Shown: positions 2,847 through 43,542 of the stretch, piece after piece
Layout of the letters: every line of letters begins with the position of its first letter
How positions within the stretch are numbered: the stretch's first letter is position 1
Origin: a virus
Taxonomy: Duplodnaviria > Caudoviricetes
Reading direction: 5' to 3' (one strand)
Length of the DNA: 64,000 nt
IMG/VR virus record: IMGVR_UViG_2619619233_000003
Location: 1-64,000 of that record
Notes under the pieces: model-generated
Databases searched by the model: none
Told to the model about the DNA's origin: nothing
The model's input: only the letters and a program-made list of their open reading frames with translations
Translations under genes and position numbers: made by a program

Positions 2847-3248
2847 TCACGTGTCGGTCATGGCGCCGGCGATAAACTGCGCAAGCACTTCACCATGCTC
2901 TTTGAGACCGTTTTCTGCATAGTGCGTCGAGTCGCTCAGTGTTTCGATGTAAGCTCCTGTCTGCGCGTCCACGGTGCTTGAGTACTTGAAGCCAGCATCG
3001 CGGTTAACCGTGCAGTAGATCGGGACGAGGACCACCTTCGGGTCGCCAAGATCGCGGACAAACTTCACGAATGCCTTCAAACCGTCCCAGTGCTTCGTCT
3101 GCCATCTCGTTTCGGTCGACTGCCGCCCGTAGGAATTATACACGAGCACGATTCTTGCCGCTGGGCAGGCTCTTCGGATTTGGCTCACCATTACCCTCAG
3201 GCCCTCTTGAATTTGCAGTAATGAGCGCGGCGCGTCCTTCTGGACAAA
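2847..3248 (-). pseudogene. C-terminal remnant of an SGNH-hydrolase tail protein
   Basis: Frame is open from an upstream TGA at 3249-3251 and has no convincing start. It retains block V DSTHY but lacks blocks I-III. A 10-bp direct repeat (CTTCTGGACA) marks the breakpoint. Confidence 0.55.
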
Positions 3249-33083: not shown

Positions 33084-33393
33084 TCTTCTTTCCTCCAAAG
33101 TTCGGGCGGATGATGTTGCTCTCTGCTTTTTCAAGCAGGCTGGTGAGTTCACCGGTCGCAAGCTGCTCGGCAGTCTTTGCGAGCAGCTTTCCCGCCTCGC
33201 TGTCGCGCAGAATAGAAAGCTCAAGCTCAAGGTGGCCGGCCTGCTGGGACAGGGCGCGAAGGGTTTTCAGCACGGTCTGGGCGGAACGCGCGTCCAGTTC
33301 CAGTTTCTCATCCGGCTTCATCTTTTTGGCTTCCGCGAAGATGCCGGCGAGATATTCCAGATGAGTTTTCAGGGAGGGAGCCGCCGATGTCAT
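33067..33393 (-). CDS. Hypothetical protein
   Basis: ATGA-coupled to the MuB stop. Confidence 0.6.
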   Translation of the reverse strand: MTSAAPSLKTHLEYLAGIFAEAKKMKPDEKLELDARSAQTVLKTLRALSQQAGHLELELSILRDSEAGKLLAKTAEQLATGELTSLLEKAESNIIRPNFGGKKNDGEA

Positions 33394-34421
33394 AGGCTGT
33401 CCCCCATGTCGCGGTTCTTCCAGGCGGCCTGAAGGTGCTCCAGACGCACACCTTCCTCGCCGTCGCCGATGGCAAGCATCGATGCGGCCTTCATGGTGCG
33501 GTCGATCTGTCGGAGAGCACCCGGCTTGCTGGCGATACCCTTCAGGAAGGTGGCGCAATCCGTGCCTTCGTCGATGCCCCAAGCCTTGATCAGGATTTCC
33601 GCATCGGCGACCGGATTGCGCGCCGTGCGAACTTGGCGATCGAAGCGGGAGAGCACCTGGGCGCGGCTGGCGACAGAACGGCCGAGGTCTTTCACGAACG
33701 CCGTCGCGGTATCCTCGTTCCCGAGCAAGGCAACACCGCAATGGTCGTTGTCGACGAAATGGCGAAGCTGGTTGATCGCATCCGGAACCGCGTTCTGCGC
33801 CTCATCAATGATGAGCAGCGAGCCTTCGCCGACGCGCTTCAGCTTTGCGCCGAGGGCGCGGACGAACTTTGCGGGATTGTGCTCATGCACTTCGAGCGCC
33901 CCGCACAACTCGACGAGCATGCCGTGCACCGTCTTGGTGCTCGGGCTGAGCGTCGCCATGAACACGTGAGGGCGCGTTGCTGCAAAGTGCTTTGCCGCGG
34001 TTGTCTTGCCGGAGCCTGCGGGCAAGGTGACGCGGACGAAACCGGACGTTACCTGGGCAAACAGAAGTGCGTTGTAAACGTCCTGGCCGACCGTTGTGCG
34101 CTGGAAAGGCGGCGACACTGGCATGATGGCAGCCATATTCTGGCTTGCGTCGATGGCATCGAGCCAGTTGGCCATCTGCTGATTAACGTTCGCCAAAATG
34201 CCCAGATATTTTCCGCCAAACCACGGCGAGAACGTGCCTTCGGGCACGCCGGAGCGGCGGGACACTTCTGCTTTCGTCCAGCCGTATGTGACGGCGACAT
34301 CGACAGTGCGCGCTGTCAGGTTTCGCCATTCGGCAACGTCCGATGCCGGATGTTTGGCGGTAAACTCGATTAGCGGTTGCGACTGTTCCCACACGCTATT
34401 TGTGTTGGTCGTCTTTTTCAT
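33390..34421 (-). CDS. MuB-like AAA transposition ATPase
   Basis: N-terminal HTH, AGSGKT, LIIDEAQ, LLGN and GALR motifs; follows the transposase. Confidence 0.92.
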   Translation of the reverse strand: MKKTTNTNSVWEQSQPLIEFTAKHPASDVAEWRNLTARTVDVAVTYGWTKAEVSRRSGVPEGTFSPWFGGKYLGILANVNQQMANWLDAIDASQNMAAIMPVSPPFQRTTVGQDVYNALLFAQVTSGFVRVTLPAGSGKTTAAKHFAATRPHVFMATLSPSTKTVHGMLVELCGALEVHEHNPAKFVRALGAKLKRVGEGSLLIIDEAQNAVPDAINQLRHFVDNDHCGVALLGNEDTATAFVKDLGRSVASRAQVLSRFDRQVRTARNPVADAEILIKAWGIDEGTDCATFLKGIASKPGALRQIDRTMKAASMLAIGDGEEGVRLEHLQAAWKNRDMGDSL

Positions 34422-34501
34422 ATAAAGGTTCCTTCGTTCAATTGTGGGGCGGCCTTCGGGTCGCTCATTTTTTTCGCCCTGTTGGACTGGAACCGTACTC
34501 A

Positions 34502-36517
34502 CTACTTTTCGGCTCTTCTCTTGCGGGCAGGCTTGTTGCCTGCCTCGTTATTCCCCGTGGGGAATTGGATGATTGCGCTTTCCCCGCCCGCCACTCGGGC
34601 GAGGCCACGCGCAAAACTGTCTTCGAAATGATCGACGCTGACCGCCTCGACCGGGGCATGTGCAAGGTTGCCGGTGACAAGGCGCGTGACGACCGGACGA
34701 ACCGGCGTCTGCGGACGCTTCGCAGCCTCGGCCTTGCGGCCCTTTTCCATGATCTCGCCAAGCTGCATCGGTGAGAGCGCCGCATTGCTCTTGGCGACCG
34801 CCTGAAGGTTCTTGACGTGGGTCTTGCGTGCCTTCTCCTGGCGGCGGGCAGCGTCCGTGTCGGCGAAGCCGGTTTTAGCCAGGCAGTCGGCGTCACAAAG
34901 GAAGCGGCCTTCCGGGTCGTAGACCTTGACCGGCTTGTACAGGTCGGCCGGATCGAACCGCACCGTCAGCTTCTTGCCGATCCACTCGTTAAGCACCGCG
35001 TTCCAATAGCGGTTGCCGTGCATGTGGATCGCGCCGTCCGGCTTGCGTGCGGTGATGGCGACGGCCGACAGCATCCAGAGCGAACGCTGGGCCATGCTGG
35101 CATAACGAACGATCGTGGACGGCTCGGCGATCGACGCGTCAAACGTCTGCGCAAAACTGCGGCCGTGGGCGGTTTCCGTTGTGCGGTTCAGCCGGTGATT
35201 ATGCTCGTCAACGCATTGCGCCACATGGCGCTGGAGCGTTTCGAGCCGAACCGCGCTGTTGCCGTAGTTTTCCGGCTTCGCGTCGGGCTTGTTGCCGGTA
35301 TAGCAACCGGACATGGACGGATGCTTTGAGATTTCCTCGGCGAGATCGCGCCATGCGCGTTCGATCGGCTTAGACTGGCCGGAACGCGGCTTCACGAAAT
35401 GCGGCTCGATGTCGAGCGTTTTCAGGAGGCCGGCAACATCGTCCTCATTGACCTTGAAGCGGTGGCGGGTCTTTGCCCCGCCCGATATCATCTTGCCCGC
35501 GAAGGCACGGCCGTTGTCCATGTAGATGTGATAGGGCAACATGCCGTCATGGTTCTCGATCATGGAACCGATGCAGGTGCGGACGGCCTCCCATGTCTCG
35601 GCCTCGGCAAGCGTCCACGAAAGCACCTTGCGCGAATAGACATCCTGAATACCGATCAGGATCACGCGGACCGGTGTTTCCGACCACGGTGCCCGCACAA
35701 ACAAGTCGAGCTGGTGACCGTCGGTGTTGACGATTTCCATGGCATGCAGGTGGGCGACGGTGCGCTTTTGCGCCGGGAATAGCTGCTTTGCCTTGTCCTT
35801 GCCTTCGCGGGCGATGATCTGCGCGGCCTTCGGGACTTCCGCGTCCAGGCGGCGCCGCAAAGAACGCTCGGAAGGGACCGGCGACAGGTTCTGGTCGCGG
35901 GCAACCATCATCATGCGGCGATAGCAGGCGCTAAAGGAAGGGCGCTCGGGCCGCAGGAAATCCGATTTAAGGATTTTCCAAGCCTCGGGGTGGCAGGGCG
36001 CGACTTCGGCGGCTTCGCCGGTGCCGCTGCCCGAGAATGACGGGGCGAGGGCAGCAAGCCAGTCCTGGCGAGAATGGCCTTCTACGCTTTCCATCCAGTT
36101 GTACACGGTGCGCGGCGATACCGATGCTTTACGGGCGCAAAACTCGATCGCCTTTACAGTCTGCAACCCGGCTGCGCGCAGCTCCGCAATCTCGGTCAAC
36201 ACGCCCAAGCGCGTTTTGCAGATCGCTTTATGGGCGTCTGACAGGGCCTCAAAACGGTCCCAAAGCATCTTTGAAAGCTTGGTCGGGCGCGGGTCGCTAG
36301 GCTCCGCATTGAGGAATGCGAGCTTGGCCTGCGCCACCGCAGGAAGGAAGGAATAATGGTACTCAAACCCGCCGCCTTGCCCGGCCTTAGTACGGGCTTT
36401 CGCGGTGGATCGCACGCCGGAGCGAGCGATAAACAACTCTAGTCCTTGGCGGGAGCTCGGAACACCCGGCAATGCCGCCTGGGCCAGTTCTGCGGATGTG
36501 AACCATTCCTTCTTCAT
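34502..36517 (-). CDS. MuA-like DDE transposase
   Basis: Mu DNA-binding N-terminus (GGGFEYH), DGH, DVYSR, DNGRAF, KPIERAW, and C-terminal RFDP.DL. Confidence 0.95.
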   Translation of the reverse strand: MKKEWFTSAELAQAALPGVPSSRQGLELFIARSGVRSTAKARTKAGQGGGFEYHYSFLPAVAQAKLAFLNAEPSDPRPTKLSKMLWDRFEALSDAHKAICKTRLGVLTEIAELRAAGLQTVKAIEFCARKASVSPRTVYNWMESVEGHSRQDWLAALAPSFSGSGTGEAAEVAPCHPEAWKILKSDFLRPERPSFSACYRRMMMVARDQNLSPVPSERSLRRRLDAEVPKAAQIIAREGKDKAKQLFPAQKRTVAHLHAMEIVNTDGHQLDLFVRAPWSETPVRVILIGIQDVYSRKVLSWTLAEAETWEAVRTCIGSMIENHDGMLPYHIYMDNGRAFAGKMISGGAKTRHRFKVNEDDVAGLLKTLDIEPHFVKPRSGQSKPIERAWRDLAEEISKHPSMSGCYTGNKPDAKPENYGNSAVRLETLQRHVAQCVDEHNHRLNRTTETAHGRSFAQTFDASIAEPSTIVRYASMAQRSLWMLSAVAITARKPDGAIHMHGNRYWNAVLNEWIGKKLTVRFDPADLYKPVKVYDPEGRFLCDADCLAKTGFADTDAARRQEKARKTHVKNLQAVAKSNAALSPMQLGEIMEKGRKAEAAKRPQTPVRPVVTRLVTGNLAHAPVEAVSVDHFEDSFARGLARVAGGESAIIQFPTGNNEAGNKPARKRRAEK

Positions 36518-36978
36518 TTGCGCACCCGACGAATGTGCACCGGCGTCGCCTGAAGAACTTTCAGTTCCTGGGCGAGCTTCTTTTGCTCCTGGCGGATGCG
36601 GGACATTTCCGCGAGGCGGGCTTCATCGCCTTCGAGCAGCAACAGGCCGTCATCGGAAACGACGACATCCCAGAGCCAGAAGGCGTTCGTGGCGCGGACA
36701 AACGCCTTGAAGCGCGGCATGCTGATGTCGTGGGCGGTTTTGCTCTCGGCGGTGTAGCTGTCGAGAGCCGACTTCGAGACCTTGTCGAGGCCGAGGTAAT
36801 AGGCCATCCGCGCCGCGATCGTGTCGCGGTCGTATTGGCATTCGCGAATGGCGCGGGCCATTTCGCGTTTCAACGTCGAACGGAAGCGGTCGATATCGAG
36901 ACGTTCCGATGCGGATCGCACCGGGAAAACCGTCTCCTTGAAAAAGTCCATCTGGTTGGGGTCGCGTTTCGTGCTCAT
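36514..36978 (-). CDS. Hypothetical regulatory protein
   Basis: R..IAARM..YLG..VSK..LD.Y pattern; coupled to the transposase start. Confidence 0.7.
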   Translation of the reverse strand: MSTKRDPNQMDFFKETVFPVRSASERLDIDRFRSTLKREMARAIRECQYDRDTIAARMAYYLGLDKVSKSALDSYTAESKTAHDISMPRFKAFVRATNAFWLWDVVVSDDGLLLLEGDEARLAEMSRIRQEQKKLAQELKVLQATPVHIRRVRK

Positions 36979-37820
36979 GCTGCCTCCTCGCGGATCGCAG
37001 CCATGAGGGCATCCGGCGCGTCAGACATGCCGATGTGCTCAAGGAAGCTATCGCGTGTTTCTTCGCTCGCCTCGTCCCAGGCAGCGATCAGTTTGGTGAG
37101 AATGATGGATTGAGAAGGCGCGGGCGGCGCGGTCACCAGAACCGGTGGCTTGGTGAAAGCCAGAACCTTCTTCACATCTGGGGTGTGCTTCAGAGCGTCA
37201 GCCACCGCGACCTGATCTTCGCGAGGCAGTTTTGCCAGAGCAAGAAGCTGTGACTGATCGTTCTCCGCAGTGGTGCCGCGTACCGCCTGCCTCAGCACCG
37301 GATCAAGGTTTTGCCCAATGCGCGACACAAGCTTATATGTCTCGGCGCCGAAGCCAAAACGCTCCTGAACCTTTTCGGACAAGGCCCGACCCTTGGCGAA
37401 AACAGGGTAATCGTTACCCTGTTTTTCAGGTCTGCCGCCCTTCGGATTGATCTTCCCGTGCTTTTCCTCCCACAGCTCGCGGTACTTCATGACGAAGATT
37501 GCGCGGTCGAGTGCGTTCAACTCGTTGCGGTAAAGGTTCTCGGAAATTTCGAGCAGCTGCGCCTCGACGGCGTCAGCCTTGACGACAATGGCGTCGATCT
37601 CCGTCCAGCCGAGCAGCGTTGCGGCGGCGGTGCGATAGCCGCCCGCCACCAGCGTATAGGGAGTGCCCTTTTTCGCGGGCGTCTTGCGGATCATGATTGG
37701 GCTGATCTGCCCGTGTTCGGACATCGAGGCGGCGATCGCCTCGGCGTAATCCATGTCGATCGGGCGCAGCCGTTCGCCGACATGAATGCTGGAAATGGTG
37801 GCCCGGATGAACTCAGCCAT
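36975..37820 (-). CDS. ParB-like N-terminal domain protein
   Basis: G..SPI, LVAGGYR and EISENL.R motifs; RBS CAGGA then ATG at 37820. Confidence 0.85.
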   Translation of the reverse strand: MAEFIRATISSIHVGERLRPIDMDYAEAIAASMSEHGQISPIMIRKTPAKKGTPYTLVAGGYRTAAATLLGWTEIDAIVVKADAVEAQLLEISENLYRNELNALDRAIFVMKYRELWEEKHGKINPKGGRPEKQGNDYPVFAKGRALSEKVQERFGFGAETYKLVSRIGQNLDPVLRQAVRGTTAENDQSQLLALAKLPREDQVAVADALKHTPDVKKVLAFTKPPVLVTAPPAPSQSIILTKLIAAWDEASEETRDSFLEHIGMSDAPDALMAAIREEAA

Positions 37821-38187
37821 AGGAGGCTTCCTGTCCGGCCGAGGCCTCGTAAAGCATCTCCATAAAGGTGTCTTTGGCGCGGGCGGCGACGCGCTCGTAA
37901 GCCTTGTCGAAAAGCGGTTCGAAGCGGCGGGCCTCGACGACGCGGACAGCCTGCATGACGGTCCAGCGGGCAACACCCAGGAGCACGACCAGGCGGCGGC
38001 GCGGCACGCCGAAATCGATATGCAGGACGTAGATCGCCATCTGCCGCGCGAGCTTCGCATCGAACATTTCGGCAGGCGGATTGATGATGTGGCGCAGTGG
38101 CAGGTGGTTGAAGTGCGCGCGGCTGGCGCGGTAGCTGGCCGCCACCATCGCCTGCAAACGTTCTTCATCGGAATAAGGATTTACCAT
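37813..38187 (-). CDS. DnaA-C-terminal-like HTH protein
   Basis: ARQMAIYVL...ARWTVMQAVRVVE pattern. Confidence 0.65.
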   Translation of the reverse strand: MVNPYSDEERLQAMVAASYRASRAHFNHLPLRHIINPPAEMFDAKLARQMAIYVLHIDFGVPRRRLVVLLGVARWTVMQAVRVVEARRFEPLFDKAYERVAARAKDTFMEMLYEASAGQEASYG

Positions 38188-38318
38188 CGAAACCTCGGAG
38201 TTCGTCGCTCGGCGACGGCATTGCGGCAGATCGATGCCGGGGCGGTGGGGCTGGGGGTTGAGGCCGCCCCGGCATCTGGCGTCGCTCCCTGGGGGTAACA
38301 GAGCGACGGTTCGGGAAA

Positions 38319-39005
38319 TCAGCGGGATTTGGCGGCGTCTGAGCGCGCAAGGAGGCGGCAAAGCTCGGGCTGCATGTCCATCGTGAGGCAACCGACAATC
38401 CTGTCGTCGATGTCCGCATCATCCTCGCCCAAAAGGAGATCGACCAGCTTGTTTCCAACCGTCATATGAACGTTAGCGTCCATAACGGTGGCGTCTGCCT
38501 CACTGGTCAAAAGGTCGGTCAGAGCTTGCTGCAGGATCGTGTCGTCGAGTGCGATAGACGCCGGGCTGTAACCGGCCGCAAGCTTCGCCTCGTTGAGCGC
38601 GTGAGCTGCAACAACAATCGCACGGGCCTGCCGCAAGCGTTCGGTGTCGACCGCTTCGAGATCGACGGCGCAGGCGATGCTATGTGGCTGTTTCACCACG
38701 GGCTCTGGAGCGGCGTGGGGCTGGTAGGCTAGCCCGGCGACAGCGCTCAATTGAACGACTTCGGAAGGGTGCGGGCGGTCGACTAGGCCGTTTTTGACGC
38801 GTTCGTGCCAGTCTGCAAACTCTTCGAAGGTCGGGGCTTCAAACTGGCGCTGTTTGACGCCGGTTGCAAAGAAATAATAGGCCTCGCGTTTGTTCTGTGC
38901 GCGCTCGACGATGTTGTCGAAAGTGGTGATGACGAGGTCCATGACCCGTGGAGGGACGCGGTCAAAGAAAGGCACGGCGACGAAGTTGCGGACTGCTGCG
39001 GTCAT
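38319..39005 (-). CDS. Hypothetical protein
   Basis: 228 aa, ATGA-coupled to the upstream ORF. Confidence 0.6.
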   Translation of the reverse strand: MTAAVRNFVAVPFFDRVPPRVMDLVITTFDNIVERAQNKREAYYFFATGVKQRQFEAPTFEEFADWHERVKNGLVDRPHPSEVVQLSAVAGLAYQPHAAPEPVVKQPHSIACAVDLEAVDTERLRQARAIVVAAHALNEAKLAAGYSPASIALDDTILQQALTDLLTSEADATVMDANVHMTVGNKLVDLLLGEDDADIDDRIVGCLTMDMQPELCRLLARSDAAKSR

Positions 39006-39160
39006 TGAGCTGCTCCATAGTTTTTGAGGATGGTGAAAAGGACGGCCGAAACGCCTGCGAACGCAGGACTAAAAATCAGCAGGATTTCGGCCCACCGGCA
39101 CACGCGGGAGTGTGACGGAATGAAAATCGACCTGTCGAAATTGGCACGCGGTTTCGTCAT
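39002..39160 (-). CDS. Small membrane protein
   Basis: ATG at 39160; one TM helix. Confidence 0.45.
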   Translation of the reverse strand: MTKPRANFDRSIFIPSHSRVCRWAEILLIFSPAFAGVSAVLFTILKNYGAAQ

Positions 39161-39291
39161 TGTGGGGTGTCTGCTGATCGGCGATTGTCGGGGTGTGGAG
39201 CGGTCGAGAGATTGGGACTGACAGCCGGGGCGAACGAACGCCTTGCACTCGTGCGGTAGGCTAGAGCAGCAATCCCGAACCGTTCCACGCT

Positions 39292-39621
39292 TCATGCTGC
39301 GGCTTGCTCCGCTTCGGCGGCACGACGGCCGTTCCGGTAATTCTCCGAAGGCTGCGGGCTGAGCCTGCGACCGTCGGAGTGATAGCGGGAGAACCAAAGA
39401 AGGTGCGGACGGGTTTTTAGGGCCGCTGCGATGGCGCGTTCACCTGCCGCGTGCGGCTCGTGTACGGCGTTACCAGCCGTGCCGGAGGGCAGGTTGTATT
39501 TCTTGTCGATCTCGGCAAGCGTAATTTTGGCAATGATGAGCTTGCCTTTTATGCGGGCAATTTCTTCCAGCCTTCGGCGTTCGGCACGGCTTGTCTTGCC
39601 GCCGTCAGAGACACGGTGCAT
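39292..39621 (-). CDS. ner: Ner-like DNA-binding protein
   Basis: IK..L..TLAEI...GERAIAAAL..PHLLW.SRY motif; divergent from the repressor. Confidence 0.85.
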   Translation of the reverse strand: MHRVSDGGKTSRAERRRLEEIARIKGKLIIAKITLAEIDKKYNLPSGTAGNAVHEPHAAGERAIAAALKTRPHLLWFSRYHSDGRRLSPQPSENYRNGRRAAEAEQAAA

Positions 39622-39699
39622 AAAGGATTCCTTCCAGAAGGGAGGCCCTGAACCGGCCTCCTTTTTTGGGGTTATTAATTCTGCGAACACAGAAAGGAT

Positions 39700-39740
39700 T
39701 AAACCAGAAATTCGGTTTTGTAAACTGGAATATTGGTTTA
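39700..39740. promoter_or_regulatory. Two tandem palindromic operators between ner and the repressor
   Basis: TAAACCAGAAATTCGGTTTT and TAAACTGGAATATTGGTTTA. Confidence 0.65.
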
Positions 39741-40439
39741 ATGGGGAAATTATTGGCTAGACCTGAAGCGAAACCGAAAACGGCGCTCGCTGCGCGCTTG
39801 CGCGATCTGCGGCGAAAGCTCGGCGATCCCGAAAGAGACCAGTTTGCGGAGCAGCTCGGCGTTAGCAAAAATACGCTGGCTTCATATGAGCGTGGGGAAA
39901 CGGAGCCAACAGCCTCCGTCCTCGATGCCTACCGACAGAATTTCGGCGCTAGCGTGCTTTGGATTGTCACCGGTCAAGGAGACATGTTTTCCGAATCTGC
40001 GACTGTAACCGAAGGTGTCGATATGGTGGAAATTCCGCTGTACGATGTGCAAGCCGCCGCCGGTTCTGGCCTCATCCCAAAAGACGATGGGCTGCATAAC
40101 TCGGTTGCCTTCAGCCGCGCGTTCCTTCGTAGCATCGGGGCAAAACCAGAAAGCTGCATCATGCTTGAGGCCAAGGGCGAAAGCATGCTGCCGACGATCC
40201 CAGATGGCGCGTTCATGATCGTCGATCAAAGCAAGAGCGACATCGTCGATGATCAGGTTTTTGTGTTTCGCGTCGGACCCGGTATCAAGGTGAAGCGGGC
40301 AAACTGGCGCATGGACGGCTCGCTAGAACTGCGTTCTGATAACGAACAGAATGGCTATCCAAAGGAAGTCATCGACGAGGACGTGGCGGACGATCTTTCC
40401 GTCATCGGCCAGGTGCTCTCTCTTCTTCGTCGAGCTTAA
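39741..40439 (+). CDS. XRE-HTH / S24 peptidase (CI/LexA-like) repressor
   Basis: FAEQLGVSKNTLASYERG; AAG.G cleavage region; GESM.P and VKR catalytic motifs. Confidence 0.92.
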   Translation: MGKLLARPEAKPKTALAARLRDLRRKLGDPERDQFAEQLGVSKNTLASYERGETEPTASVLDAYRQNFGASVLWIVTGQGDMFSESATVTEGVDMVEIPLYDVQAAAGSGLIPKDDGLHNSVAFSRAFLRSIGAKPESCIMLEAKGESMLPTIPDGAFMIVDQSKSDIVDDQVFVFRVGPGIKVKRANWRMDGSLELRSDNEQNGYPKEVIDEDVADDLSVIGQVLSLLRRA

Positions 40440-41838: not shown

Positions 41839-42246
41839 TCACTCCCCGAACATGGGCTTGAGGTAGATCGCGTCACTCGGCTTGTAAGTCCACCGCCATT
41901 TATCAGATATGGCCATTGCCAACCGCGCCGCGATCTCATTGCGGGCGGGTTCCGAATAGAGCGTGAGTTTGTCCGCAAAGGTCTTCGCGAGATCGTCAGG
42001 CACAGCCGTCAACTCAGCCGCCAAGAAGCTTTCCACGTCGCTTTTCTCGACCTTCCTGTCATCCTCAAAGAAGGTGTAGGTGTGACCAAGATAGCGAGTG
42101 ACAACGACCGCGACTTCCTTCGTGGCAGTCGGCTCTCGCCGGCGTCGAACACCCTTTCCGCCAAACCCGTTTCGGAAGGTTCTTGGCACGACCGCCAGAG
42201 CAACCGCGATAGCCTTCTCGATGTCGTCGTCCGCTGCGGGGTCCAT
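41839..42246 (-). CDS. Hypothetical protein
   Basis: RBS AGGAGAG then ATG; 135 aa. Confidence 0.6.
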   Translation of the reverse strand: MDPAADDDIEKAIAVALAVVPRTFRNGFGGKGVRRRREPTATKEVAVVVTRYLGHTYTFFEDDRKVEKSDVESFLAAELTAVPDDLAKTFADKLTLYSEPARNEIAARLAMAISDKWRWTYKPSDAIYLKPMFGE

Positions 42247-42308
42247 TGGTCTCTCCTTTGAGGCTCAACGCGGTTTTGAGGCCGCGTTGAGGATGTTTTG
42301 AGGGCCTC

Positions 42309-43217
42309 TTAATGACCACTTAAATGGGCATTTTTGAGAGTTCGCCACGCATACGCTGCAGCCAGGCTGACCACGCCGTTACCGGCTGCGTCGGATCGGT
42401 CCACCCGATCGGCCATCCCATGATCCAGTCCGAAAAGTTCGGGTTGAAGGTCAGGTCGCCGGGCGAGGATCGGTGACCAGCGTTCAAACTCAGATGGAGC
42501 GGGCGGGAAGATGGAAAGCTGAACGGACGTGTCGGGGTCGCTCCGCATGCCTGCATCAGCATCCATATCTGCGTCCACAGCCGTGCTGCCTTGCCGATCC
42601 CGAACTGAGATCCCGCGGCCGCCGCATCGTCCCTCATCTTGAAGCAATCGTTGACCAGTTCCATCTCGATCTTCGTGCAGTAGATCGATTTTGTTGGCGT
42701 GGGCCACAATGAAGAGCCGCCGACGCTGGTGGGACGCGCCGATTTCTGCCGCGCTGAACAAGCCCGCTTTGACTGTAAAGCCCAGCGATCGAAGGTCCCC
42801 GAAAACCGTGTCGGCTCCCAGGGACATATGCCCTTCGACGTTTTCGAAGAAGCACCACTCGGGATCAAGGTCAGTGACGATTCTCCGGACGTAAGGCCAG
42901 AGGTGGCGGGGATCGTCCTCGCCCTTGCGCCGGCCGGAGAAGCTGAAGGGCTGGCAGGGATATCCGGCAGTGAGGATATGAACCTTTCCACGCCAAGGCG
43001 TGCCGTCGAAGGTGGTAACGTCATCCCAGACAGGCGCCTGATCCAGGGCCTTGTCTTCCATCCTTGCCACGAGAGTGGCCGCAGGGAAGGCTTCCCGCTC
43101 GACGTAACAAACAGTTCGATAGTCTGGTTCTGCGATGTGGAGGCCGAGTTCGAGGCCGCCGACGCCGGCGCAAAGCGAGACGCCGCAGAGGTCATTTCTG
43201 GAGGTATGTAGAGCCAC
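42309..43217 (-). CDS. C5-cytosine DNA methyltransferase, large polypeptide (motifs I-VIII and X)
   Basis: SLCAGVGGL, GYPCQPFS, ENVEG, HQRRRLF and GNGVV motifs; motif IX absent. Confidence 0.92.
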   Translation of the reverse strand: MALHTSRNDLCGVSLCAGVGGLELGLHIAEPDYRTVCYVEREAFPAATLVARMEDKALDQAPVWDDVTTFDGTPWRGKVHILTAGYPCQPFSFSGRRKGEDDPRHLWPYVRRIVTDLDPEWCFFENVEGHMSLGADTVFGDLRSLGFTVKAGLFSAAEIGASHQRRRLFIVAHANKIDLLHEDRDGTGQRLLQDEGRCGGRGISVRDRQGSTAVDADMDADAGMRSDPDTSVQLSIFPPAPSEFERWSPILARRPDLQPELFGLDHGMADRVDRSDAAGNGVVSLAAAYAWRTLKNAHLSGH

Positions 43218-43219
43218 AC
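42320..43219 (-). CDS. Overlapping-frame partner polypeptide carrying methyltransferase motif IX
   Basis: GTG at 43219 (MWLYIPP), 299 codons open, C-terminal LTFNPNFSDWIMGWPIGWT. Confidence 0.7.
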   Translation of the reverse strand: MWLYIPPEMTSAASRFAPASAASNSASTSQNQTIELFVTSSGKPSLRPLSWQGWKTRPWIRRLSGMTLPPSTARLGVERFISSLPDIPASPSASPAGARARTIPATSGLTSGESSLTLIPSGASSKTSKGICPWEPTRFSGTFDRWALQSKRACSARQKSARPTSVGGSSLWPTPTKSIYCTKIEMELVNDCFKMRDDAAAAGSQFGIGKAARLWTQIWMLMQACGATPTRPFSFPSSRPLHLSLNAGHRSSPGDLTFNPNFSDWIMGWPIGWTDPTQPVTAWSAWLQRMRGELSKMPI

Positions 43220-43386
43220 GAGTTCATCCTTGGTTGCCGCTCCTGGCGGTCGGTTAAGGGCTCTGTTGGCCTCAAGTGATTGATGGTGCCGCAACGGCGG
43301 CACTTGATTTCGATGTCATTGGATATGGCTCCCTGCCCAGCCCGAAACAATAGGGCTGAACAGGTGCCACAACGAATGTTTTGCAT
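43192..43386 (-). CDS. com: Com family translational regulator
   Basis: First ~50 aa almost identical to the Com at 2430-2648. Confidence 0.9.
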   Translation of the reverse strand: MQNIRCGTCSALLFRAGQGAISNDIEIKCRRCGTINHLRPTEPLTDRQERQPRMNSCGSTYLQK

Positions 43387-43416
43387 ATCAAAAAGCTCAC
43401 GAGTCAGTCACAAGGA

Positions 43417-43542
43417 ACCCGCCCTGCAGGGCACGGGTGCGACGGTTATCGTGTGGTGTCGTCGGACGGGACTGGACGCCAATCTTAGGCCCGTCGCTTG
43501 GGTGCGTAGAATCACCCCAGCCACCCGGTCATGACCGGATGG
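43417..43542. ncRNA. Conserved structured RNA upstream of com (second copy)
   Basis: Homologous to 2679-2801 with preserved stems. Confidence 0.5.

Follow-up and report, generated by a model that had tools for sequence, protein, structure and literature searches.

The window analysed here is a stretch of 64,000 nucleotides (nt) from a tailed virus (positions 1 to 64,000 of IMG/VR record IMGVR_UViG_2619619233_000003). Its minus strand carries, at 42309-43219, a gene for a predicted DNA (cytosine-5) methyltransferase that is open from end to end in two reading frames, preceded by a com gene. The frames are labelled A and B, and their products alpha and beta. Read along the minus strand, the start region consists of AAGGA, 7 nt and GTGTGG, and the GTGTG at 43219-43215 holds two GTG starts 2 nt apart. 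The features of the locus are as follows.

42320..43219, minus strand: frame B (beta), 299 amino acids (aa), GTG start at 43219-43217, stop at 42322-42320
42309..43217, minus strand: frame A (alpha), 302 aa, GTG start at 43217-43215, stop at 42311-42309
43227..43231, minus strand: Shine-Dalgarno sequence AAGGA common to both starts, 7 nt from the frame B start and 9 nt from the frame A start
42684..43181, minus strand: catalytic part of alpha, motifs I-VIII, at PF00145 positions 4-166, with the frame A wobble position the most variable
42477..42509, minus strand: alpha F237-W247, FPPAPSEFERW, with P241 and W247 invariant in 62 sequences
42369..42383, minus strand: alpha GNGVV, motif X, with G279, N280, G281 and V282 invariant in the same alpha block check of 62 sequences
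42323..42718, minus strand: beta residues 168-299, WPTPT variable (target-recognition-like) region and motif IX-like block, from codon-phase analysis
42398..42454, minus strand: beta LTFNPNFSDWIMGWPIGWT, motif IX-like, overlapping alpha PELFGLDHGMADRVDRS, with all three codon positions conserved
43192..43386, minus strand: com, gene for a 64-aa zinc-ribbon translational activator (PF10122 Zn_ribbon_Com, E = 1.6e-13, residues 2-50)
43237..43249, minus strand: Com-target-like RNA hairpin CCGC-CAGGA-GCGG with a stem of 4 base pairs, 18 nt before the first GTG
43192..43195, minus strand: ATGA, the com stop overlapping a frame B ATG (beta Met9), read from the sequence

Re-reading of the sequence confirmed, at every coordinate, the two GTG starts behind one AAGGA that had been claimed in a first, sequence-only reading of this DNA. 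In frame A a stop lies 6 nt upstream of the start and no alternative start codon precedes motif I, so that 43217 is the sole possible frame A start. The com gene ends in the third frame, 25 nt past the first GTG, and both methyltransferase frames run over its last eight codons and stop. Over 43195-43217 three frames are open, in agreement with the earlier claim that com takes the third frame there and that all three code. When frame A was shuffled synonymously, a mean of 3.4 stops appeared in frame B and 3 of 200 shuffles were stop-free; shuffling of frame B produced a mean of 7.4 stops in frame A, with none of 200 stop-free. The third frame of the gene has 10 stops. Contigs from two sequencing runs, X1 (42263-43490) and X2 (42527-43500), all of them DNA or of unknown kind, matched the window without difference, and all seven insertion or deletion (indel) rows listed for related contigs fall outside 42309-43219. 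The double open frame is not a product of chance or of sequencing error.

Database searches detected more than 100 full-length homologues of frame A, at 56-88% identity, and 266 homologues of frame B, most of them named “hypothetical protein” in their source; among the best 120 of these 266 no Pfam family was found. DNA of relatives was taken from 36 loci in genomes and 48 in virus contigs. After partial matches (L032-L036, L042, L043, L049, L056-L059, L063, L067-L070, L081), duplicates or near-duplicates (L031, L041, L047, L053, L060, L065, L078, L084), rows with masked N runs (L023, L026) and indel-damaged rows (L017, L018, L025) had been dropped, 54 complete genes were analysed, the window's own included. 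An interrupted second frame in homologues would, by the sequence-only reading, have spoken against it; frame B was stop-free from the shared start in 53 of the 54 loci, and the dual openness is conserved. A pattern describing the beta N-terminal motif was passed by 50 genes, and none of these 50 had a frame B stop over the whole overlap. Three of the four that failed the pattern were open variants (MWILP; WLFVP after a longer N-terminus; VTWLLPV). Across the 50 genes, synonymous shuffles of frame A gave means of 1.5-9.0 frame B stops, with 0-7% of shuffles stop-free, and shuffles of frame B gave means of 3.7-22 frame A stops, with at most 0.5% stop-free. Their third frames contained 7-29 stops.

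The 50 genes formed 16 clusters at 70% alpha identity. Among the groups represented were Alphaproteobacteria, Desulfovibrio, Planctomycetota, Dehalococcoidia and Betaproteobacteria, many further loci came from virus contigs, and the guanine-plus-cytosine (GC) content of two-frame loci ranged between 0.47 and 0.71, against 0.46-0.71 over the set of 54. At the lower end of this range (L037-L039, GC 0.47-0.48) both frames were open over 387-506 codons, while the third frame had 25-29 stops. Two cultured phages in GenBank also possess the two-frame gene, each annotated in one frame only: in phi1026b (L085, 1404-2705) the alpha frame is annotated “DNA methyltransferase” and the other frame is open, and in Alfacinha3 (L086, 1409-2575) the beta frame is annotated “cytosine-specific methyltransferase” and the other frame is open. 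Searches with blastn against phages returned only short motif IV matches, yet two of the records proved to hold two-frame genes; tblastn with beta gave no match in GenBank phages and one record among plasmids, and blastn against E. coli genomes gave none. The damaged locus L017 and a protein, P0336, are frame-swap chimeras in which the alpha N-terminal half is joined to the beta C-terminal half, without motifs VIII and X, and they look like the outcome of indel damage.

Divergence by codon position was determined for 23 close homologues in intervals of 60 nt. Over nt 1-510 of the gene (motifs I-VIII) the frame A wobble position was the most variable, except in one of 16 intervals (nt 121-180), where frame B reached the same value (0.20 versus 0.20). 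From nt 481 to 840 (WPTPT through GWT) the most variable position was the frame B wobble, and over nt 811-900 (GNGVV and the tail) it was again that of frame A. Since the most variable position switches from A to B and back to A, selection reads motifs I-VIII in frame A, the WPTP region and motif IX-like block in frame B, and motif X in frame A. At about nt 750-840 all three codon positions were nearly frozen (divergence 0.05-0.18), and this stretch encodes alpha PELFGLDHGMADRxDRS and beta NPNFSDWIMGWPIGWT on the same bases. Each frame is thus open and under selection, with information of its own.

The start region is conserved in the same manner. After the beta start, 47 unique sequences share TGG-NTN-TAY-NTN-CCN, encoding W, a hydrophobic residue, Y/F/H, a second hydrophobic residue and P. 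No variation occurred in TGG, at position 2 of either hydrophobic codon or at positions 1 and 2 of the proline codon; entropy was 0.75-1.46 bits at the remaining first and second positions and 1.55-1.98 bits at position 3 of the hydrophobic and proline codons. This pattern indicates that the beta N-terminal motif is under protein-level selection in frame B, and W-x-Y-x-P was also kept in loci without com. The base preceding TGG was G in 37 sequences, T in 5, A in 3 and C in 2, and therefore the alpha start is an NTG sharing its TG with the beta tryptophan codon in 45 of the 47; in the two CTG cases a different alpha start lies 4 or 7 nt further upstream. Starts separated by 2 nt, as NTG-TGG, were present in 37 of the 47, and the remaining 10 had M-x-W, with starts 5 nt apart or with the alpha start slightly upstream. 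In several loci a preceding frame B stop lies 0-3 nt ahead of the beta start. A purine-rich block occurs at the same distance in relatives; in 31 of the 50 genes the distance from the nearest Shine-Dalgarno-like 4-mer to the beta start was 5-10 nt, and by a strict pattern 18 had none. Judged from these alignments, co-located starts are a trait of the family and not a quirk of the window. The layout behind the earlier claim of a co-initiated partner is kept in relatives, where both starts lie within 2-5 nt of each other.

Alpha residues 13-178 matched Pfam PF00145 at profile positions 4-166 of 324 (E = 7e-30), and alpha contains the N-terminal catalytic half of a C5 methyltransferase (FxGxGG-like, PCQ, ENV and QxRxR motifs). 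It also matched residues 73-179 of M.HhaI (E = 7e-20) and, over residues 13-297, phrog_363 (E = 3.6e-53). Three ordinary single-chain C5 methyltransferases of related genomes served for comparison. The alpha profile was aligned with them by hhalign over alpha 8-298 (99.4%), with GNGVV (residues 279-283) laid on their GNAV. Together with the PF00145 match, this upholds the earlier description of frame A as a 302-aa chain with motifs I-VIII and X. Alpha alone does not hold a variable region followed by motifs IX and X: the Pfam match ends at profile position 166, and the alpha tail by itself had no Pfam match, only GNGVV aligning with motif X. In 20 distant alpha chains a conserved N-terminal half is followed by an unalignable middle and then by LPxFPPxPxxxxxW and GNGVVP, with nothing conserved where ordinary C5 methyltransferases hold their variable region. 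The FPPAPSEFERW block was kept in distant alpha chains and was not seen in the three ordinary enzymes compared, and we suggest alpha F237-W247 as a candidate docking site for beta. At about alpha residues 250-262 (42430-42470, minus strand), DLQPELFG aligned at low confidence with RLQGFPDSF of the ordinary enzymes, which could be a motif IX vestige in the alpha frame or a chance likeness.

Beta is composed of an N-terminus M-W-L-Y-I-P, a weakly constrained stretch of about 130 residues, a helix near residues 140-160, the WPTPT variable region and the motif IX-like block, with the tail LTFNPNFSDWIMGWPIGWT at 42454-42398. In relatives the C-terminal half reads WPTP, a region of very variable length, and LNPxFxxWxMGWPxGWT. 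Beta matched phrog_1008, labelled “DNA methyltransferase” (E = 1.2e-14), and also phrog_10223 of the same label. The beta pattern L..P.....L.G[FW]P..[FW] resembles RLTPRE..RLQGFPD.F of the three ordinary enzymes, a likeness at the level of pattern only. A 299-aa frame B ending in a motif IX-like block had been proposed earlier; the openness of the frame stood up, whereas profile tests did not confirm the label “motif IX”, which we keep as a description of the pattern. With a profile of the beta C-terminal half, 22,578 cluster representatives were reached at E ≤ 0.001; the number fell to 4,780 at E ≤ 1e-10 and to 54 at E ≤ 1e-30. Among the 95 top matches of at least 280 aa, the W motif lay within the first 60 residues in 47, and in 42 of these within the first 6; the rest were mostly variants or internal-ATG calls. 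No Pfam family was found in the 10 longest top matches. No protein of 525-2000 aa carrying the beta module, as a fused single chain would, was found, which is weak evidence. Language-model look-alikes of beta were PF00145 clusters (score 0.95), but such scores can also arise when a real gene is translated in the wrong frame, and they were not used as evidence. Beta residues 69-98 (about 42926-43015, minus strand; profile PSTAxxGVAxxISS) matched residues 18-47 of the MS2 coat protein weakly (E = 0.0038), probably by chance.

We suggest, with a probability of about 0.74, that the gene encodes a C5 methyltransferase whose two polypeptides are specified by two full-length frames of one DNA stretch, an enzyme resembling M.EcoHK31I and linked to Com. 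Ribosomes at the single Shine-Dalgarno sequence would choose GTG 43219 for beta or GTG 43217 for alpha, and both frames would thus be translated. Alpha would be the catalytic chain, and beta would bring the motif IX-like block and, for target recognition, the variable WPTP region. The two chains would assemble into a heterodimer, both being needed for methylation of its DNA site, as has been shown biochemically for M.EcoHK31I. Binding of Com to the hairpin, 18 nt ahead of the first GTG, probably makes both starts accessible at once.

The likeness to M.EcoHK31I is drawn from its published description. In M.EcoHK31I, from E. coli HK31 (recognition site YGGCCR), beta is described as read in another frame inside alpha, both chains being required for activity, with motifs I-VIII and X in alpha and motif IX in beta (PMC2836561, PMC3404938). 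The N-terminal 42 residues of that beta are reported to be required for association, and internal methionines are reported to be used as well (PMC2836561). M.EaeI is named as an isoschizomer of M.EcoHK31I. The present gene likewise has a predicted second chain in another frame of the alpha gene, the +1 frame, which is under selection, being uninterrupted in 53 of 54 loci. The two systems differ in layout: beta is nested in M.EcoHK31I, whereas here it is 299 aa, of alpha length, and starts 2 nt earlier at the same ribosome-binding site. They differ also in context, the present gene lying in a phage late operon with Com and not in a restriction-modification system. The M.EcoHK31I-like split proposed earlier was thus supported as to an alternative-frame chain under selection, but departed from as to the variable region, which is selected here in the beta frame, unlike the published target-recognition domain, placed in alpha (PMC2836561, PMC3404938).

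The working core of beta probably comprises its last 165 residues or so, which is close to the size of M.EcoHK31I beta (176 aa, with an alpha of 309 aa). The first 130 residues or so are probably a weakly constrained leader, predicted by modelling to be disordered, which on our reading must stay open because translation begins at the shared site. Another C5 methyltransferase in two chains, M.AquI, has genes side by side without frame overlap, in which it differs from the present gene. Its natural split is placed in the variable region, giving parts with motifs I-VIII and IX-X (PMC3404938).

Several results weigh against a two-chain enzyme, and most concern beta. Beta matched no Pfam family at E ≤ 1, none of the 73 members searched fell on PF00145, and beta tails alone had no Pfam match. 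The beta profile found no relevant relative in PDB, only the weak MS2 coat match, and hhalign of the C-terminal half against the three ordinary enzymes gave 0.4%, with a template that was thin at three sequences. AlphaFold2 modelled the whole chain at a mean predicted local distance difference test (pLDDT) score of 57.6, with the N-terminal half below 50, and the C-terminal half alone at 55.1. By region, pLDDT was below 50 at residues 1-31, 54-79 and 84-138, 67-70 in the helix at 140-160 and 64-89 over most of the chain from about residue 180. Foldseek with this poor model found no match in PDB at E ≤ 0.001, and a wide VIA structure search with it found none at Z ≥ 5, the listed matches covering mainly residues 117-167; neither search bears on the fold of beta. 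In 152 distant pairs the identity of the beta N-terminal half was 0.309, as against 0.238 +/- 0.003 in the shuffle null and 0.514 in frame A, and four-fold sites of frame A in the same half were 0.417 identical, as against a null of 0.295. However, the third frame reached 0.286 there, so the signal of the beta N-terminal half is modest, and part of the conservation of beta is forced by the invariant motifs of alpha. A single complete relative, L021, has a frame B stop (around 3000-3070, at about beta codon 22), with the rest of the frame open and alpha intact; the locus comes from a metagenome-assembled genome, and either a sequencing error or a later beta start may be behind the stop. Finally, no usable RNA run turned up: only one of 21 sequencing runs listed is recorded as RNA, and it held only 0.09 of the words.

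In the main rival explanation, an internal start gives rise to the last 165-175 residues or so of frame B, the only part that is produced or important, and the upstream openness and the start region have other causes, such as RNA signals or the overlap with com. It would account for the weak constraint and predicted disorder of the beta N-terminal half and for the L021 stop, one protein (P0168, 176 aa) has been called over the C-terminal part, and internal methionines are also described for M.EcoHK31I (PMC2836561). We nevertheless consider it unlikely, as it leaves unexplained why frame B lacks stops downstream of the shared start in 53 of 54 loci, with 1.5-9 expected, and why the start codon and W-x-Y-x-P are kept with frame B periodicity, also without com. 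The loci in which a frame B stop immediately precedes that start also argue against it.

It is very improbable that alpha alone is the enzyme, with frame B either left untranslated as a by-product or serving some unrelated purpose. Annotation pipelines do call one frame only, and beta belongs to no Pfam family. However, at the position of the variable region of C5 methyltransferases alpha has nothing conserved and selection reads frame B, and the family of the frame B module is conserved and very large, as the counts of representatives given above show (22,578 at E ≤ 0.001, 4,780 at E ≤ 1e-10). Hardly credible is a single polypeptide made through two programmed frameshifts, from A to B near motif VIII and from B back to A after GWT, which would yield an ordinary enzyme with motifs I-VIII, variable region, IX and X. 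The phase map of A, B and A does follow the exact domain order of an ordinary single-chain enzyme. Such a product would have no need for an open frame B upstream, an open frame A in the middle, a start and N-terminus of beta's own or the alpha FPPxP..W block, all of which are kept, and motif VIII in frame A and WPTPT in frame B are encoded by the same bases. A programmed frameshift gene would have a zero frame that ends past the shift site and a new frame with stops ahead of it, whereas this gene has no stop in either frame over its full length. L017 and P0336, which look indel-damaged as noted above, were the sole frame-swap products encountered, and slippery sites were not searched for. An assembly or sequencing artefact or a decaying pseudogene, suggested by the few indel-broken relatives (L017, L018, L025), has a negligible chance given the same sequence in independent assemblies, the lack of indels listed inside the gene and the conservation of the layout across phyla.

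The product of com has the cysteines of a CxxC...CxxC zinc ribbon at positions 6, 9, 29 and 32 and matched phrog_6417, “translational regulator” (E = 5e-12). Com is described as recognising CC(N)2-3GAG in a hairpin loop adjoining a structure that hides the mom GUG (PMC6483171). In the hairpin of the window, CC(N)2GAG runs from the last base of the 5' stem through the loop to the first base of the 3' stem. In 21 com-linked sequences its pairing was intact in 88.1% of cells, as against 70.8 +/- 2.6 in shuffles, none of 500 of which reached this value. All four pairs changed on both sides, while slid controls paired at 17-54%. The outer pair joins two wobble positions of com codons and occurred as CG in 7 sequences, UA in 6, AU in 2 and GC in 2. 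The hairpin thus covaries, and together with the com gene and the published Com model it supports Com control.

Upstream of the pair, com-like genes were present in the alphaproteobacterial clade, in the Desulfovibrio locus L016 and in L080. In the more distant two-frame loci com was absent and the co-started double frame was still kept, and on this distribution Com appears to be an add-on of one clade. Of the earlier claim of Com control, the direct coupling and the covarying Com-type hairpin stood, whereas com itself is not a trait of the whole family. As to a structure hiding the starts, the single-sequence minimum-free-energy fold was no better than shuffles (z = -0.8), and RNAalifold gave a candidate helix GAGC:GCUC of four pairs that never varies and shows no covariation. 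The GAGC of the hairpin 3' arm can pair with the GCUC of the beta W-L codons (43215-43240, minus strand), a pairing, in competition with the Com hairpin, that would close off a stretch containing the Shine-Dalgarno sequence and both starts. The ATGA at the end of com may provide a second, coupled entry into frame B by termination-reinitiation. At the com stop, 19 distinct com-linked loci, many of them close kin, had the frame B codon ATG in 12 cases, CTG in 4 and TTG, GTG and TTA in one each.

A more elaborate scheme is possible but doubtful. In it, the choice between NTG starts 2 nt apart, one of them inside the tryptophan codon of the other frame, would fix the alpha:beta ratio, the chains, made by ribosomes of both frames moving along one mRNA next to each other, would assemble co-translationally with the beta pentapeptide and the leader of about 130 residues serving assembly, and one Com hairpin would gate both chains, with ATGA as the second entry into frame B. 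If true, this would be a phylum-spanning, fully dual-coded gene of about 300 codons whose products are obligate partners.

As in the com-mom operon of phage Mu, a small zinc-ribbon com at the right end of a Mu-like genome runs into the start of a gene for DNA modification, and a short CC(N)2-3GAG hairpin lies next to the start region (described for Mu in PMC6483171). Unlike in Mu, the controlled gene encodes a C5 methyltransferase and not mom, and two starts in two frames lie behind the site. In FluMu and Pnme1 a methyltransferase is described as replacing mom behind a com homologue, with a Com site proposed at its 5' end (PMC3299994). Those enzymes (hin1523 type) are single-chain N6-adenine methyltransferases, in contrast to the two-frame C5 enzyme of the window. 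In the literature searched, which excluded subscription journals and REBASE, we found no account of a family-wide or full-length two-frame C5 methyltransferase, nor of a complete overlap with co-located starts, a variable region in beta, such wide conservation or a Com link. By this comparison, the principle has already been published for M.EcoHK31I, and the extent and layout of the overlap appear to be new.

Extended overlaps of genes on one strand are considered rare in bacteria and DNA phages, and gene-calling programs reject them. Here two chains of one enzyme would share every codon of a 0.9-kb gene, and of about 500 codons in relatives, in a layout kept across GC contents and phyla. The frame B module, despite its 22,578 cluster representatives, has no Pfam family, and public records annotate one frame. 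If our reading is true, many methyltransferases of this family annotated in one frame are half-enzymes, and predictions of recognition sites must therefore read the hidden frame. The gene could then serve as a model for start choice between two frames, for the evolution of double coding and for Com-type activation of two products at once.

The window lies within a provirus record of 82,085 nt that holds a single PF00145 match. Upstream on the same strand are tail-fibre, tail, tape-measure, major-head and protease genes, and this gene order places com and the methyltransferase in the “mom slot” at the right end of a Mu-like prophage. The methyltransferase operon is followed directly by another Mu-like transposable element, the second (33390-40439); as the record has one PF00145 match, this element appears to be without a two-frame gene in the record. 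The neighbouring features are as follows.

39666-40439, plus strand: CI/S24-like repressor of the second element
36975-38168, minus strand: ParB-like gene of the second element
34502-36517, minus strand: transposase of the second element
33390-34502, minus strand: MuB-like gene of the second element
41839-42246, minus strand: open reading frame of 135 aa directly downstream of the methyltransferase, matching phrog_25064, of unknown function (E = 4.9e-6)

The GC content dips to 0.519 at 40-42 kb, which is the junction of the two elements.

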